From contig VBMQ01000001.1 in the NCBI GenBank assembly GCA_005878375.1, positions 1 to 34,043 of the forward strand: 34,043 nt of DNA, read 5' to 3'. Within the stretch, counting starts at the first letter, position 1, and every line of letters starts with the position of its first letter. The position numbers and the translations under genes are program-made. A model generated the notes under the pieces. That model saw only the letters and a program-made list of their open reading frames with translations. It did no database searches and had not been told where the DNA came from. Positions 24,508 through 29,239 of this stretch are shown here, piece by piece. The DNA is from Methanobacteriota archaeon. GTDB taxonomy: Archaea > Thermoplasmatota > Thermoplasmata > RBG-16-68-12 > EA-27.

Positions 24508-24919
24508 CGTCCTGAGGCGGGTTCGATACCGACTGCCTCGTGCTGCCCTGAGGAAGGCACGTTTCCTAAATAACGACTACTGCAGGTACACGAAAACTAC
24601 CGACCGTCGTTTCGCGTGGACGGACATGTGGGGTCCCCTTTCCGCAGACGAGTCGGACGCGTTCAAGAGGTTGTCCTGACGAGCCGCGGAAGCGCTCCAG
24701 TTCTATCACGAAGACATCGTAGAACGGTTCAGCGCCCCCGGTCGACCGATCAATCGACTGAGGGGGATGGGAGGACTGTAAGGGTGGGTCCGCCCGTCTT
24801 CCGCAGACCTCTCGCCCGTCCGCCCGGAGGAATTGATAACCGGGGCATCACCCTTAAGCCGAGGCCCTCCCATCGCATCACCTCGAGAGGGGGCCCGTAC
24901 GGACCTCGAACTTGTGAAG

Positions 24920-25525
24920 ATGAAAGTCTGCATGGTCGGCGAGGCCGCCGTCGGCAAGACGAGCCTCGTCCGCCGCTTCGTCCTCGACCTGTTCAACGAG
25001 GCGTATGCGGCGACTCTCGGCGCCCGCGTCACGAAGCGGGAGTTGCATTTCAAGGGACTCGAGGTCGACAAGCACGTCCGCGTGGACATGACCCTGTGGG
25101 ACATCATGGGCGAGCGGTTCGTGCGGGACGAGCTGCGGGAGTCGTACCTCCTCGGCGCGCAGGCCGTCATCGCGGTCGCGGACATCGCCCGGCCGTCCAC
25201 GCTCGATGCCCTCGAGACGTGGATCGAATGGGTGCGGAACGCGGTCGGGGAAGTCCCCGTCGTCTACGCCGTGAACAAGATCGATTTGCTCCCCGAGCTC
25301 ATGAAGCGACCGAACGACGAGGAGATCGAGCAGCTGTTCGGGATGAAGGACGTCTTCTGGTTCTATACGAGCGCGAAGTCGGGCCAAGGCGTCGAGCCCG
25401 TGTTCTCCGCCGTCGCGAAGCAGGTGCTCGCCGAGGTGCTCGACTACCAGGTCGAACCGCTCCCGAAGGGGACCCGCCCGAGCGCGGACGCTCTAGATCT
25501 CGCCCGCGGCCCGTTGGGCCCGTGA
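24920..25525 (+). CDS. Ras/Rab-like small GTPase
   Basis: ATG at 24920 (MKVCMVGEAAVGKTS). G1 is GEAAVGKT, G3 is WDIMGE, G4 is NKID and G5 is SAK. Confidence 0.8.
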   Translation: MKVCMVGEAAVGKTSLVRRFVLDLFNEAYAATLGARVTKRELHFKGLEVDKHVRVDMTLWDIMGERFVRDELRESYLLGAQAVIAVADIARPSTLDALETWIEWVRNAVGEVPVVYAVNKIDLLPELMKRPNDEEIEQLFGMKDVFWFYTSAKSGQGVEPVFSAVAKQVLAEVLDYQVEPLPKGTRPSADALDLARGPLGP

Positions 25526-25570
25526 GCCCTCTGCGACCGTTCGGATTCTGGGAATTCAACGCCTTGCTCG

Positions 25571-26356
25571 CTAGCAGACGCAACACCGTGGGCTGTCCCA
25601 GTACTCGAGCCCGAGGCGCACGAGCGTTTCGTCCGCCGACGTGATGCCGTACGCGGAACCGTCGCCCAGGCGCGTGATGGTGAGGACCTGCTGCCCATCC
25701 GCGACGAGGACGAGGCAGTTGCACACGATCGCGCGGACCTCTGCGGCCTTTTCGAGCTCCCGTTCGAGCCGGATGTCCGGGACCGCAAGTTTTACTTTGA
25801 CTCTCCTCCGGGAGGCGTTCACGAGGTCATGCTCGATCTTTCGGAGGAATGCCTCGTCCGAGGCGAGCACGACGAGCTCCCTTCGCGCCGACGCGACCAT
25901 CGCCTGCGCCCGCGCGATGACGTTCGAGAGTCCTTTGACAACGTACGCGAGGTCGGTCGTGGACGTCGTTGCGGAGGACCGCAGCGGCTCAAGGAGCGCG
26001 GCGACGCGTGTGACCGAAGCCCGTTCGCGTTCGTGGCGCTCGTCGAGCATGCGCTGCAACCGCGACGCTGCGTCCTTGGGCGGCACGGCCCGATACCGTT
26101 TCGGCTTGCCCGTCTGCACCGCCACGAGCCCGCGCTCGGCAAGCTCATCCATCGCGTAGTAGATCTTCGAGTCGGGGATGCCCGTCCGTGCGATGAGGTC
26201 CCCCGCCGTCGCGTGCGGGAGGCGGACGAGGGCGGCGAACGCCTGCGAGGCGTATCCGGAAAGGCCGAGGTCCCGGAGGGTGCCTTCAATCTCCTGGCGG
26301 GAACCGTGCGCGGCTTCCTCCAACAGGACGTTCGCGCGCTTCTTGACTTCCGACAT
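25571..26356 (-). CDS. TrmB-family transcriptional regulator with a Cys-rich C-terminus
   Basis: ATG at 26356 lies ~30 nt from the TTGATAAAG box. The wHTH is LGLSGYASQAFAALVRLPHATAGDLIARTGIPDSKIYYAMDELAERGLV. The protein contains CNC and ends ..SPRCCVC. Confidence 0.8.
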   Translation of the reverse strand: MSEVKKRANVLLEEAAHGSRQEIEGTLRDLGLSGYASQAFAALVRLPHATAGDLIARTGIPDSKIYYAMDELAERGLVAVQTGKPKRYRAVPPKDAASRLQRMLDERHERERASVTRVAALLEPLRSSATTSTTDLAYVVKGLSNVIARAQAMVASARRELVVLASDEAFLRKIEHDLVNASRRRVKVKLAVPDIRLERELEKAAEVRAIVCNCLVLVADGQQVLTITRLGDGSAYGITSADETLVRLGLEYWDSPRCCVC

Positions 26357-26380: not shown

Positions 26381-26414
26381 TTGATAAAGTTGCCTACTAC
26401 TACACAGAAGTAGG
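26381..26414. promoter_or_regulatory. bidirectional TATA-like box (TTGATAAAG, 26381-26389) plus TACT-N10-AGTA palindrome (26393-26414)
   Basis: This is the only A/T-rich element between trmB and the smORF. Both ATGs lie 30-34 nt from it. The arms CCTACT and AGTAGG are exact reverse complements and overlap the expected plus-strand transcription start. Confidence 0.45.
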
Positions 26415-26419
26415 TAACC

Positions 26420-26521
26420 ATGAGTCCCAAGGAACCGACGGACGAGGGTCGGAACGCGGACGCGTGTTGCGGGCCGGGATGCTGCGGGGGCGCACCCTGC
26501 TGCTCCGCCTGCTGCTGCTGA
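26420..26521 (+). CDS. candidate 33-aa cysteine-rich peptide (MSPKEPTDEGRNADACCGPGCCGGAPCCSACCC)
   Basis: It is not in the supplied ORF track because it is too short. The ATG at 26420 lies 33 nt from the shared TATA-like box, mirroring the trmB ATG on the other side. An in-frame TAG lies 9 nt upstream. The stop is at 26519-26521 and a T5 run follows at 26549-26553. Confidence 0.35.
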   Translation: MSPKEPTDEGRNADACCGPGCCGGAPCCSACCC

Positions 26522-26548
26522 ACCGACCCCGGGACGGCCACCCGCACC

Positions 26549-26553
26549 TTTTT
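26549..26553 (+). terminator. oligo-T run downstream of the Cys-rich smORF (may double as the A/T box for the next gene)
   Basis: The T5 run starts 28 nt after the smORF stop and lies about 28 nt upstream of ATG 26579. Confidence 0.25.
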
Positions 26554-26578
26554 GGCGGGACCGGCCTTCCCGCCCGCC

Positions 26579-27109
26579 ATGGCGAAGAAGTTCGACCCGC
26601 GCCGGATCGGGGTCTCCGTCCCTCGCAAGGCGCCGATCCAGCTCCACCCGTTCACGAAGTTCTTCAAGGGGTTCGAGCGCGTCGAGGCGGTCCGTCGGAC
26701 GTTCGGCCCCAACACGAGGCGCGTACTTGACACGGTGAAGGTCGAGTTCTTCTCGTCCCGCTTCGGGTACATGGGCGTCTCCGACGAGGACGGCCACCTG
26801 ATCGTGTCCGAATACTACCTCCGGACCGGGAACCCGCGGGACATCTACCTCGACGTCGTGCACGAGCTCGTCCATGTCAAGCAGCACCGGGACGGGCGAC
26901 CGCTGTTCCACTCGCGGTGGGAATATCAGGACCGCCCGACGGAGGTCGAGGCGTACAAGGTGTGCACGGACGAGGGTCGGCGCCTCGGGATGACGGACCG
27001 GGAGCTGATCAAGTACCTCAAGGTCCCGTGGCTCGACGACGGGGAGTTCCGACGGTTGGCGAAGAACCTCGGGATCGTCGTCCCCAAGCCGCGGAAGAAG
27101 AAGCGGTGA
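26579..27109 (+). CDS. soluble HExxH zinc-metallopeptidase-like protein (HELVHVKQ motif, DUF4157-like)
   Basis: ATG at 26579 (the listed ORF starts at TTG 26552). HELVH is at 26861-26875, EVEAY lies downstream, and the tail KPRKKKR is basic. Confidence 0.6.
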   Translation: MAKKFDPRRIGVSVPRKAPIQLHPFTKFFKGFERVEAVRRTFGPNTRRVLDTVKVEFFSSRFGYMGVSDEDGHLIVSEYYLRTGNPRDIYLDVVHELVHVKQHRDGRPLFHSRWEYQDRPTEVEAYKVCTDEGRRLGMTDRELIKYLKVPWLDDGEFRRLAKNLGIVVPKPRKKKR

Positions 27110-27148
27110 GGCCAACAAGGCCATAAGCCCGGCTCCCATCGTCGCGGC

Positions 27149-28609
27149 GTGAAGGCGCTCCGCGATCCTCGGGAGCCGGCGGCGTTCTCCCTCGTCGTCC
27201 TCATCGGGTTCGTCGTCGCGAAGTTCATCGCCGTGGCCGTGCACGAGGTGATGGGCCACGGGGTGTTCACGGACGCCCTTGGGGGCGTGTTCTACGGCGT
27301 CTACATCTCGCCTGGGTCCGGGTTCACGCTCCTGTTCCTCCCGGCCACGACCCCGCCCATCGCGTCCGTCCTCGTCGACTTGGCGGGGATCACCGTCGAC
27401 CTCCTGCTCGGCGTCGCGGTCTTCGTGGCGTACCCGCGCGTCCGGTCGTTCGTCGGTCGCCTGTTCGCCCTCTTGCTCCTTCAATCGTTGTTCGTGTACT
27501 CCCTGGCCTACCTCGCGCTGGGCACGATCGAGAGCACGGGCGGCGACTCGTATCAGGCGGTCCAGGACCTCGGGGCGCCGTTCCTCACCTACGCGTTTCT
27601 CGCGGTCGGGATCCTGTGGGCCCTCGGGTCTGCGTACGTGATCAGCCGCGAGCTCGTCGTGCTAACTTCCGCTGATGCGCGGTTCGCCCGCCAACTCACC
27701 TACCTCGGGCTCTTCTGGTTCGTCCCGCTCGCGTCCGGCTACGTCCCCGCCATAGCCTTCGGCCCGGGTTCCGCGATCCTGTACTTCCTCCTCTTCGCTG
27801 CGGTCGGTGCGATCGCTTTCGCGGCGGGTTGGCTCCTCGCCCCGCGCATTCCCGACGCGGGTGCGTCGCCAAAAGCCCGCGCATTGGGTCGCGTGATCCC
27901 CCTCGCCGTGGCGTTCGCTGTTGTGCTTCCGATTTGGCTTGGGGGGTTCGGGCTGTCAGATTCGGCGGCTCACGGGATTCTCGTCCGAGAGGCGCCGCTT
28001 GAAGCGGAAGGAACCCTCTCCGATTCCCAGGTCATCAACGTCGAGGTGGACCTCGCGGCCGACGGAAACGTCACGCTTGAGTTCCGGATGCGTGGCGTGC
28101 CACCCGCGACGTCGCCCCTCGAGGACGCGGTGTGGAATTCCTTCAACGATCGCGCGGACTTCCCGTCCTGGATTGCCCAGTCGCGCTGCTATGCACGATG
28201 GATGTTCAACGTGACAGCGTGGGACGCACGGTCGGCGTCGATTGACGCGAACGGCACGATTTGGTCCGGCGCTGCGACGGTCGGTCAGCCGCGCGTCGTT
28301 CGAATGGGCGTGTCGAACCCCGTGGACGAGGCGAACTTGACGACGGTAAGCGTCAACGGGACTCGGGCGTTCCTCACGATCGCCCCAATCGACTCCTTGC
28401 GGTACTACCCGACCGCGCCGTGCGGCCTCGGGTTCTTCGACGAGATGAACCTGACGTGGGCTTCGTCCCGGTTTCGATTATCGTCCCTGCAGACGCAAGG
28501 CGGGGCGCCGGCATCCCCTCTCATCGGAGGAAACTTCGTTCGGTTCCGGAACCCAGGTCCGGCCGAAGATGCGCCGACGAAGTACCGCCTCGTGCTCGAA
28601 GTCTTCTGA
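27149..28609 (+). CDS. membrane protein: N-terminal M50B-like intramembrane metallopeptidase domain plus large extracytoplasmic domain
   Basis: GTG at 27149 lies 25 nt from the CCATAAGCC box. HEVMGH (27242-27259) sits inside TM1 and is followed by GG..Y.VYISPGSGFT. There are ~7 TM helices, then a ~210-aa domain with five N-x-S/T sequons. Confidence 0.6.
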   Translation: MKALRDPREPAAFSLVVLIGFVVAKFIAVAVHEVMGHGVFTDALGGVFYGVYISPGSGFTLLFLPATTPPIASVLVDLAGITVDLLLGVAVFVAYPRVRSFVGRLFALLLLQSLFVYSLAYLALGTIESTGGDSYQAVQDLGAPFLTYAFLAVGILWALGSAYVISRELVVLTSADARFARQLTYLGLFWFVPLASGYVPAIAFGPGSAILYFLLFAAVGAIAFAAGWLLAPRIPDAGASPKARALGRVIPLAVAFAVVLPIWLGGFGLSDSAAHGILVREAPLEAEGTLSDSQVINVEVDLAADGNVTLEFRMRGVPPATSPLEDAVWNSFNDRADFPSWIAQSRCYARWMFNVTAWDARSASIDANGTIWSGAATVGQPRVVRMGVSNPVDEANLTTVSVNGTRAFLTIAPIDSLRYYPTAPCGLGFFDEMNLTWASSRFRLSSLQTQGGAPASPLIGGNFVRFRNPGPAEDAPTKYRLVLEVF

Positions 28610-29239
28610 TCACTGGTTGTACGTCTCGACGCGCTCGTAGTTCTTCTTGAGGTGCTTGATGAGGAGGTCGCGGTTCCGTCGGAGGTGGCTCTCGTACCAC
28701 GCCTTCACGACGTCGCCGAGAACCTTGTGCACCTCGTTCACGTCGAGCCGGTCCGCGGACGAGTCGAGGAGGGTGTGGATCGACCAGATGCGCTTCCAGC
28801 CCGAATACTTGTAGTAGTGCTCGCCCTCGCAATATTCGAACGAGATCTTGACGCGGGGGCGGCGGTCCGTGTCGTAATACGCGATCTTGAGCGCGTCGCC
28901 GATCCGATTCTGCTCCTGGGTCCGGTCGGTGAGCGTTACCGATTGCACGGACGCGGGGTTGAACCCCTCCCGCCACCGCCAGTCCCCGTCCGGGAACGTG
29001 TCCGGGAACACGGCCCACCGCTCGTAGCTCGGCTCCATCGCGAGGTGGACGTTCATCGCGTTGAACCGCTTCCAGATCTTCCATGCGTCTTCGATGAGCG
29101 TCTTGTTGAGGTCCGTCCGCTTGGACGCTTGTTGCCCGACATCCGATAGGATCTCGGCCGTCTTCCGCTGGAGCTCCGCGTCGAGCGTGTCGAACCAATC
29201 GGCCCCTTTGTCGGCTTTGGCCTTTGCCATGGCGACCAC
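28610..29239 (-). CDS. hypothetical W/Y/K-rich protein, no recognised family
   Basis: GTG at 29239 lies 26 nt from the TTAAATA box (29262-29268); an ATG alternative is at 29230. Its stop abuts the convergent stop, giving TGATCA at 28607-28612. Confidence 0.55.
   Translation of the reverse strand: MVAMAKAKADKGADWFDTLDAELQRKTAEILSDVGQQASKRTDLNKTLIEDAWKIWKRFNAMNVHLAMEPSYERWAVFPDTFPDGDWRWREGFNPASVQSVTLTDRTQEQNRIGDALKIAYYDTDRRPRVKISFEYCEGEHYYKYSGWKRIWSIHTLLDSSADRLDVNEVHKVLGDVVKAWYESHLRRNRDLLIKHLKKNYERVETYNQ

Follow-up and report, generated by a model that had tools for sequence, protein, structure and literature searches.

A 33-codon cysteine-rich mini-gene beside a TrmB-family regulator of Thermoplasmata appears to descend from an ArsM-like methyltransferase gene

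Contig VBMQ01000001.1 from a Methanobacteriota archaeon carries, immediately upstream of two genes for metallopeptidase-like proteins, a 33-codon open reading frame (ORF) of extreme cysteine content that is the subject of this report. The window, by which we mean the whole stretch of 34,043 nucleotides (nt) that was analysed, is archaeal, has a G+C content of ~67%, and finds its closest homologues among the proteins of Thermoplasmata metagenome-assembled genomes (MAGs). Our analysis favors, with a probability of roughly 0.6, a reading in which the interval consists of three separately promoted genes, the smallest of which encodes a regulated thiol peptide that was born from an ArsM-like gene. 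The other two encode a soluble protein of 176 residues (p176) and a membrane protein of 486 residues (p486), and the mini-gene is divergently oriented with respect to a TrmB-family regulator. The first-pass annotation had already reported the small ORF and the two larger ones, all of which are present at the positions given, as are the motifs quoted from them; it had interpreted the three as a possible maturation or export module. The elements of the locus are the following:

25571-26356, minus strand: TrmB-family regulator of 261 residues, recognized by Pfam
26381-26389, no strand assigned: A/T box TTGATAAAG in the middle of the divergent spacer, ~28-33 nt from both ATG codons
26389-26418, no strand assigned: inverted repeat GTTGCCTACTACT / AGAAGTAGGTAAC with 13-nt arms, 85% complementary, between the A/T box and the ATG of the small ORF
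26420-26521, plus strand: Cys-rich mini-gene, 33 residues with 9 Cys, recognized as an ORF with orthologues
26547-26555, plus strand: A/T box CCTTTTTGG, ~28 nt before the ATG of p176
26579-27109, plus strand: p176, soluble zincin-like protein of 176 residues, recognized by motif and AF2 model
27121-27128, plus strand: A/T box CCATAAGC, ~24 nt before the GTG of p486
27149-28609, plus strand: p486, membrane protein of 486 residues with a GTG start, recognized by motif and AF2 model

The product of the mini-gene, MSPKEPTDEGRNADACCGPGCCGGAPCCSACCC, contains nine cysteines in 33 residues (27%), arranged in four vicinal runs, and is devoid of phenylalanine, tryptophan, tyrosine and histidine, a composition that satisfies the generic description of a metallothionein-like peptide (short, at least ~25% cysteine in CC or CxC clusters, no aromatics). 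No other ORF in any of the six frames of the 34-kb window has six or more cysteines within 15 residues, and across 86 related loci such cysteine-dense ORFs are almost confined to the homologous position. Seven distinct orthologous versions were found there (in the window and at loci L001, L007, L008, L122, L196 and L197). They range from 30 to 35 codons, every difference in length is a multiple of three, and they encode 7-9 cysteines as opposed to the 2-4 present in the N-terminus of the parental arsM-like gene described below. A gap-free codon alignment of the four mini-ORF sequences of clade B further revealed that within codons 16-24 (CCGPGCCGG) all seven variable sites are third-position and synonymous, whereas among the 14 N-terminal codons the residue is altered in 11 of the 13 that vary. 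The restriction of change to synonymous third positions points to selection on the encoded Cys/Gly/Pro block, a pattern that fits neither selection on the RNA nor selection on the Cys codons alone. The recurrence of seven in-frame versions at the same site and the codon pattern of the Cys block establish the mini-ORF as a real, conserved gene for a thiol-rich peptide, in agreement with the earlier suggestion that the small ORF was genuine.

The origin of this gene is visible in relatives in which the same position is occupied by an enzyme. At loci L005, L009, L010, L118-L121, L198 and L199 the gene divergent from the same regulator encodes a methyltransferase of 238-243 residues, whose best family is the arsenite methyltransferase family NF008823 (262.9 bits in L005, 248.9 in L199 and 239.4 in L198); since these scores, 239-263 bits, come up to the 263-bit cut-off or fall slightly short of it, we refer to the enzyme as ArsM-like. 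The common spacer length, A/T box and inverted repeat place the ATG of the mini-ORF exactly where the arsM ATG stands, and the N-terminus of the ArsM-like protein holds the motif CCGPGCC. In most arsM-bearing genomes the enzyme gene is followed by a second small ORF, smORF2 (e.g., MAEALVREKARARCCGGPCCEEWCRLECRDC or MMSPNLVQALAAAKAREPCCGGAPCCAEWRRAEFRGK), which encodes 31-37 residues with an ALVREKAR-like helix and either CCGGxPCC or GCGPC..C..C (L005, L010, L118-L121, L198 and L199, for example at L198:2848-2958; L009 is without it). The start of smORF2 overlaps the stop codon of the ArsM-like gene (ATGA or GTGA), and p176 begins 35-52 nt further on. DNA alignments relate the window to both parents: its segment ...TGTTGCGGGCCGGGATGCTGC pairs with the arsM N-terminus of L009, and ...GGGGGCGCACCCTGCTGC..., together with the downstream spacer, pairs with smORF2 of L118 and L120. 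The window ORF is accordingly composed of the 5' part of arsM, as far as the TGC TGC of CCGPGCC, and the 3' part of smORF2, from GGxPCC to the stop codon, followed by the common upstream spacer of p176. To judge from these alignments, the mini-gene is a chimera of the 5' end of arsM and the 3' end of the CC-rich smORF2, and recombination between the in-phase TGC-TGC repeats would account for the deletion as well as for the open frame. The ArsM-like gene of L010 (L010:3225-3842) starts with MEPELARIP... and is without the N-terminal helix and CC segment of the other copies; in this locus smORF2 supplies a CCGGPCC segment.

The conversion seems to have taken place repeatedly. In a maximum-likelihood tree built from the TrmB-like regulator, p176 and p486, arsM-bearing loci are nested in both mini-ORF clades (L199 and L118/L120 with L008/L122, and L198 with the clade of the window), and the minimum number of changes on this tree is four. 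A single mini-ORF clade is rejected by the approximately unbiased (AU) test with a delta lnL of 246.7 and a p value of 1.7e-52, a very large effect for a group that was defined after the tree had been seen. Either at least two independent replacements of arsM by a mini-ORF or recombination between lineages is required.

The regulatory region is the same whichever of the two genes it serves. The divergent ATG-to-ATG spacer measures 62-63 nt in every locus (63 nt in the window), and A/T boxes (TACTTAAAC, TATTTAAGA, TAGATAAAC) occupy the same position within it in all relatives, in front of mini-ORFs and arsM-like genes alike; the box at 26381-26389 is a putative TATA element shared by near-leaderless transcripts of the trmB-like gene and the small ORF. 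The inverted repeat at 26389-26418 has an equivalent, TCTACTAC-N6-GTAGTAGA, before the arsM-like gene in L009, L010, L118, L121 and L199, and represents a candidate operator for the TrmB-like regulator. The regulator itself, whose start (MSEVKK) agrees with those of its relatives, scores 63.4 bits against the TrmB family PF01978 (cut-off 25.6) and 47.2 bits against Regulator_TrmB. It contains an internal CxC (IVCNC in the window; IVCNC, IVCSC or IVCTC across relatives) and ends in ...EYWDSPRCCVC, following a pattern EYW[DE]SPRCC whose CC recurs in each of the 14 C-termini that were recovered. Some ArsR proteins bind As(III) through cysteine clusters of a similar kind. The TrmB-like protein is a likely thiol-based sensor of the divergent promoter, and its cysteines, its operator and its ArsM-like partner suggest that As(III) or soft metals are what it senses; no description of a TrmB regulator linked to arsenite was found in the literature. 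The downstream genes are similarly equipped: the A/T box at the position of 26547-26555, a putative promoter for a leaderless p176 mRNA of its own, is kept in 12 aligned loci (ACCTTGATTTG, AACTTTAAAG, ACCTTAAAGT), and GCCATAAG stands at the same distance before the p486 start in eight loci. The earlier assertion of a separate A/T box at leaderless distance for every gene was correct, the boxes lying ~24-33 nt before the starts, and it extends to the relatives.

These elements can be assembled into a tentative scheme. A deletion from the N-terminal CCGPGCC codons of the ArsM-like gene to the CCGGxPCC codons of smORF2 behind it left an in-frame chimera. This retained the arsM start codon, together with the A/T box, the putative operator formed by the inverted repeat and the TrmB-like regulator on the other side of the spacer. 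The regulator, through its conserved CxC and C-terminal CC, would keep the promoter shut; the binding of a soft metal, As(III) or some thiol-reactive agent to these cysteines would open it. The peptide would then be made and would bind the toxicant via its vicinal Cys pairs, as a sponge or chaperone that replaces enzymatic methylation. In the boldest form of this scheme, the mini-gene encodes a novel metallothionein or arsenic sponge of archaea, has arisen on two or more occasions from the remains of an arsM-like gene and is still governed by a hitherto unrecognized thiol-sensing branch of TrmB; we put this forward tentatively, at somewhat less than even odds. No description of an archaeal metallothionein was found in the literature. 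If true, soil Thermoplasmata have repeatedly exchanged enzymatic methylation for sequestration by poly-CC peptides of 30-35 residues in responding to As(III) or soft metals.

Several observations weigh against this reading. The ArsM-like genes score only at or just under the NF008823 cut-off and read GSGNP where canonical ArsM has a cysteine; in view of both features, arsenic is a ligand that we infer. A search of the genome itself for ArsM, ACR3 and ArsA found none, the genome being 84.6% complete and their absence unproven. The selection comparison comprises four sequences and nine codons and, given that a deletion between Cys-codon repeats automatically gives an open chimera, an intact ORF alone is no proof of function. 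Gene order also leaves room for a closer association of the three genes. According to the neighborhoods of the 171 p176 loci that were fetched and scored by targeted tblastn of named neighbors, p486 directly follows p176, at 36-56 nt, in all 12 loci that possess it, and each of the 16 TrmB-clade loci has a Cys-rich ORF or an arsM-like gene before p176. A functional link among the mini-gene, p176 and p486 within the close clade is possible. The weight of adjacency is weak, however, because the whole region from an upstream GTPase gene to gatE is syntenic in that clade, with the following flanking genes in the window:

24833-25525, plus strand: small Ras/Roc-like GTPase
28610-29239, minus strand: gene of 209 codons without a family, convergent with p486 and abutting its stop codon
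just downstream: gatE and gatD

Neither the peptide nor p176, p486 or the 209-residue neighbor gave anything above threshold in scans of Pfam, NCBIfam and PADLOC. The 209-residue protein is rich in tryptophan, tyrosine and lysine, and is 68-77% identical among members of the close clade, where it stands beside p486 and gatE. At the other end of the region, loci L001, L196, L197 and L198 carry between the GTPase and the TrmB-like gene an additional gene of 403-423 codons, which combines a Cys-rich N-terminus with an S-adenosylmethionine (SAM) methyltransferase; L001 additionally has a called ORF of 53 codons there. In the window the gap between GTPase and regulator (25525-25571) measures only 45 nt and the 403-423-residue methyltransferase is absent from it.

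The second gene of the interval, p176, belongs to a large and highly conserved family (1375 clusters at 90% identity, 295 at 50%) spread over Thermoplasmata, Bathyarchaeia and Nitrososphaeria. Its motif HELVHVKQ, encoded at 26861-26884, corresponds to residues 95-102 (H95-E96-x-x-H99-x-x-Q102), and is followed by PTE122-x-E124-AY and a basic C-terminal tail. Residues Y90, L91, D92, H95, E96, H99, Q102, T121, E122, E124, A125 and Y126 are nearly invariant in 47 diverse relatives. The AF2 model (pLDDT 86.9) predicts strands at residues 54-59, 65-69 and 74-76, a helix at 86-104 that bears the HExxH, and a second helix at 120-135 with E122 and E124. No match to this model at E <= 0.001 was returned by Foldseek from the PDB and BFVD, the top TM-score being that of the M48 protein BepA (0.41), and a profile search of the PDB with the family likewise found no significant relative (proabylysin, at E 0.66). 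The sub-threshold matches of the 47 relatives are all to zincin families: M78 (10), SprT-like (10), DUF6782 (9), YgjP-like (4) and eCIS_core (2). For M78 (PF06114, cut-off 22 bits) the best relative reaches a sub-threshold E of 2.2e-4 and the window protein has no match, and hhalign of the family against 10 archaeal M78 domains gave a probability of 39.9% (E 3e-4) over 106 columns. A fair label for p176, as far as motif and model allow, would be that of an unclassified archaeal zincin-like family whose nearest neighbor is M78. The HExxH with its downstream Glu, the predicted zincin order of strands and helices, and the sub-threshold zincin matches agree with the original description of p176 as a soluble, peptidase-like protein.

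The more specific assignment of p176 to DUF4157 (PF13699) did not hold, p176 giving no match at E up to 1 and two of the 47 relatives matching at E 0.31 or worse (cut-off 22 bits). A six-frame search of its own genome with PF13699 (E up to 10) returned nothing at 26579-27109. The tube gene of injection-system type, noted by the first-pass annotation as lying 8 kb away, does exist: the gp19-type gene at 18341-18847 matches PF06841 at 1.3e-44, and no link between it and the three genes was seen. This gp19/tail-tube protein has ~34 extra N-terminal residues. The genomic company of p176 points in another direction. A PrxQ/Bcp peroxiredoxin gene lies directly upstream in ~50 of the 171 loci, often with an ATGA overlap, and by virtue of this usual partner p176 is most likely a thiol- or oxidative-stress-linked metallohydrolase, present here by synteny. 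Some members of the family are fused to GNAT acetyltransferases (P0140, P0148, P0149 and others). The genome also encodes a p176 paralogue, 36% identical (HELVHIKQ...PTEIEAY; G000:C125:5700-6149, minus strand, locus L201), which adjoins a 148-residue GNAT acetyltransferase and a gene with a CsaA-like tRNA-binding domain. Two contigs with p176 (L018 and L035) come from MAGs labelled bacterial (Acidiferrales and Methylomirabilota); the family is otherwise archaeal and mis-binning is likely.

The third gene, p486, has a narrow distribution: a search space of 5.8 billion proteins yielded 14 clusters only, all within the close clade. Its first transmembrane (TM) helix contains H32-E33-x-x-G36-H37-G38, followed by GG..YGVYISPGSGFT, residues that are invariant in 13 homologues; after this HExxxH and the GG come a beta-hairpin, a helix that contains AG, and G132-D133 (TxGDS), likewise invariant. 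In the AF2 model (pLDDT 81.8) the protein has ~7 TM helices and a beta-rich C-terminal domain of ~210 residues. The motif HEVMGH had been correctly placed in the first TM helix by the first-pass annotation, although what had been likened to an HExxH/HExGH pattern is a six-residue HExxxH. The proposed M50B identity fared similarly. PF13398 (M50B) had no match in the genome at E up to 10, and hhalign against an archaeal M50B-like set gave a probability of 0.1%, leaving a core that is weakly M50-like. In favor of the latter, hhalign against an archaeal M50/S2P set gave 34.8% over the TM1-hairpin-TM2 segment, PF02163 (M50) matched at E 0.35 (10.6 bits, cut-off 27.2), and Foldseek aligned p486 with SpoIVFB (8vjl_A) over 219 columns (probability 0.97, E 0.21, target-normalized TM-score 0.36). 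The second M50 motif, NxxPxxxxDG, was not aligned by hhalign in p486, where G132-D133 is the sole candidate, and the profile search of the PDB with the family gave no significant relative. Weak but consistent, this evidence suggests an M50-like core with an atypical HExxxH. The term metallopeptidase-like, as applied here to both p176 and p486, refers only to motif, predicted order of fold elements and sub-threshold profile matches.

The ectodomain of p486 is probably glycosylated. The ~210-residue domain and its sequons, both described previously, are confirmed, but their number is six rather than five (N-x-S/T at 307, 354, 368, 396, 403 and 434); N354 is invariant, the 13 sequences of the alignment without exception having S or T two positions on, and most of them also have sequons close to N403 and N434. 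Nearly all relatives have a CxxC in the ectodomain (PCDTCF or PCAGCF), while the window reads PCGLGF (28421-28432, residues 425-428) and has lost the second Cys.

Seen together, could the three genes constitute one system? One such scheme would make the Cys-rich peptide the precursor of a product akin to ribosomally synthesized and post-translationally modified peptides (RiPPs), trimmed by p176, processed or exported by p486, and placed under TrmB control. At 12 loci the three genes lie on one strand in a constant order, the order found in relatives (ArsM-like gene, Cys-rich small ORF, p176, p486) resembles that of a modification enzyme, its peptide and proteases, and the conserved helical N-terminus of smORF2 (ALVREKAR) could be a leader. 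The phyletic patterns argue otherwise. A Cys-rich ORF or ArsM-like gene precedes p176 only in the 16 loci of the TrmB clade, and is missing upstream of p176 in ~155 other loci, mostly behind PrxQ; a clade with arsM, smORF2 and p176 (L005, L009, L010, L119 and L121, with L009 devoid of smORF2) is without p486, and outside the close clade the three genes are never co-located. Moreover, the window-type peptide lacks the N-terminal constraint of a recognized leader, conserved A/T boxes stand before each of the genes separately, the locus contains neither a radical-SAM enzyme nor any other maturase, and the synteny from the GTPase to gatE again makes adjacency weak. We consider this scheme unlikely. 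The broader proposal of a single maturation/export module is not supported either: the p176 family is found mostly behind PrxQ with no Cys peptide nearby, p486 is limited to a narrow syntenic clade, and the peptide gene is ArsM-derived and retains the regulator and operator of its parent. The arrangement itself, as had been surmised, has no description that we could find in the literature.

The preferred reading, a selected thiol peptide, also has to be set against the view that the deletion of arsM left the mini-ORF as a scar without function, kept open by in-phase TGC-TGC recombination and the short time available for decay. The chimeric build and the repeated independent origin would suit a mechanically favored deletion, and the promoter and operator might persist solely for autoregulation of the trmB-like gene. 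A scar, however, would hardly combine strongly diverged clade-B N-terminal codons with an exclusively synonymous Cys block, change its length by multiples of three only, and hold or increase its cysteines relative to the arsM N-terminus. This makes the explanation improbable.

A different role for p176 would be that of an ImmA/IrrE-style, stress-activated protease that cleaves the TrmB-like repressor and thereby opens the promoter. M78 proteases typically adjoin the helix-turn-helix (HTH) repressor they cleave (ImmA/ImmR, IrrE/DdrO), p176 lies ~0.25-0.95 kb from the TrmB-like gene in 16 loci, and the remote M78 likeness (the 39.9% hhalign probability, and a sub-threshold PF06114 match in 10 of the 47 relatives) is in keeping with such a function. 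That likeness nevertheless falls under every curated threshold, in the majority of cases the gene coupled to p176 is PrxQ and no regulator lies next to it, and the conserved cysteines of the regulator already allow direct sensing, all of which leaves this possibility quite improbable.

To our knowledge, no archaeon has been shown to use attenuation by leader peptides, which counts against reading the polycysteine ORF as a sensory leader in which stalling at scarce Cys-tRNA alters expression of p176 and p486. Although the ORF is leaderless or nearly so, contains runs of Cys codons, is separated by 57 nt from the same-strand gene that follows and would have a precedent documented in mycobacteria (bioRxiv 10.1101/834739), we regard this as very improbable, given that the RNA from 26466 to 26600 folds no better than its shuffled versions (minimum free energy z-score -0.94), that the A/T box of p176 at leaderless distance leaves no ribosome-binding site to sequester, that Gly and Pro between the Cys pairs are also kept through synonymous change, pointing to the peptide and not to Cys codons alone, and that the downstream genes do not belong to cysteine metabolism. 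The separate A/T boxes, the lack of significant RNA structure in the spacer and the phyletic patterns thus argue jointly against a dedicated maturation module and a Cys-sensing leader.

Several consequences follow from the preferred reading, in which the mini-gene encodes a regulated thiol peptide derived from an ArsM-like gene. The locus documents a gene for a small protein that was assembled by deletion from the 5' end of an enzyme gene and a neighboring small ORF, more than once, and the ancestral state survives in sister genomes, such that the event can be dated and dissected. Its product is a candidate archaeal metallothionein. Were the proposed ligand and regulation correct, a type that senses metal(loid)s or thiols would be added to the TrmB family, with a bearing on the handling of arsenic by uncultured soil archaea and on the interpretation of arsM surveys. 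The appealing picture of a peptide with two proteases to serve it finds no support here. Two families still without a name merit one, and an assay as well: the PrxQ-coupled zincin-like family, present in three archaeal lineages, and the small family of HExxxH membrane proteins.

Comparison with described systems places the two larger proteins at some distance from their nearest counterparts. Like M78 proteins (ImmA/IrrE), p176 has a predicted beta-strand, a helix with HExxH, a Glu on the next helix ~25 residues further on and helical C-terminal elements, but it falls below the Pfam threshold, has no constant partner repressor, and differs by a Gln at +3 after the second His, a basic tail and its PrxQ partner. 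With DUF4157/eCIS_core it shares the HExxHxxQ motif; the p176 family, however, is archaeal and chromosomal, and only the lone gp19 gene 8 kb away recalls an injection system, no search having been aimed at other genes of that kind. As in the M50 proteases S2P and SpoIVFB, p486 has a His-Glu...His in the first TM helix, a predicted beta-hairpin and a TM helix with an AG motif, whereas its HExxxH contains one extra residue, as in the HExxGH of M49, and a large C-terminal ectodomain takes the place of a PDZ or CBS domain.

For the mini-gene, a formal parallel exists in mycobacteria, where leaderless polycysteine small ORFs act as attenuators upstream of genes on the same strand (bioRxiv 10.1101/834739). 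The likeness extends to the leaderless short polycysteine ORF before same-strand genes; the archaeal host, the lack of significant RNA structure, the separate downstream promoter box and the peptide-level selection on residues between the cysteines set the present case apart. The arsenic metallochaperone ArsD contains the vicinal pair Cys12-Cys13 and Cys18. The vicinal pairs of the peptide would likewise suit three-coordinate As(III), and in relatives the gene belongs to an arsenic-linked operon, although the peptide has no relation to ArsD in sequence or fold, is ~4 times shorter, and its genome yielded no ArsA partner when searched. With ArsM/AS3MT (NF008823) the connection is one of descent, the mini-ORF beginning at the arsM ATG and keeping CCGPGCC, promoter, operator and regulator, while the entire methyltransferase domain is missing from a product of 33 residues and nine cysteines. 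The closest parallel may be the bacterial SmtA/SmtB pair. There as here, a small Cys-rich gene is divergent from a regulator with metal-binding cysteines and an operator lies in the short common spacer, the role of the cysteines and of the operator being putative in the present case. The regulator here is of the TrmB family and not ArsR/SmtB, and the peptide, for which metal binding is predicted only, is built of vicinal CC pairs, shows no similarity to the zinc-finger-like fold of SmtA and derives from an ArsM-like gene; by analogy, the nearest described logic would nonetheless be that of a metallothionein paired with a thiol-based metalloregulator whose gene is transcribed in the opposite direction.

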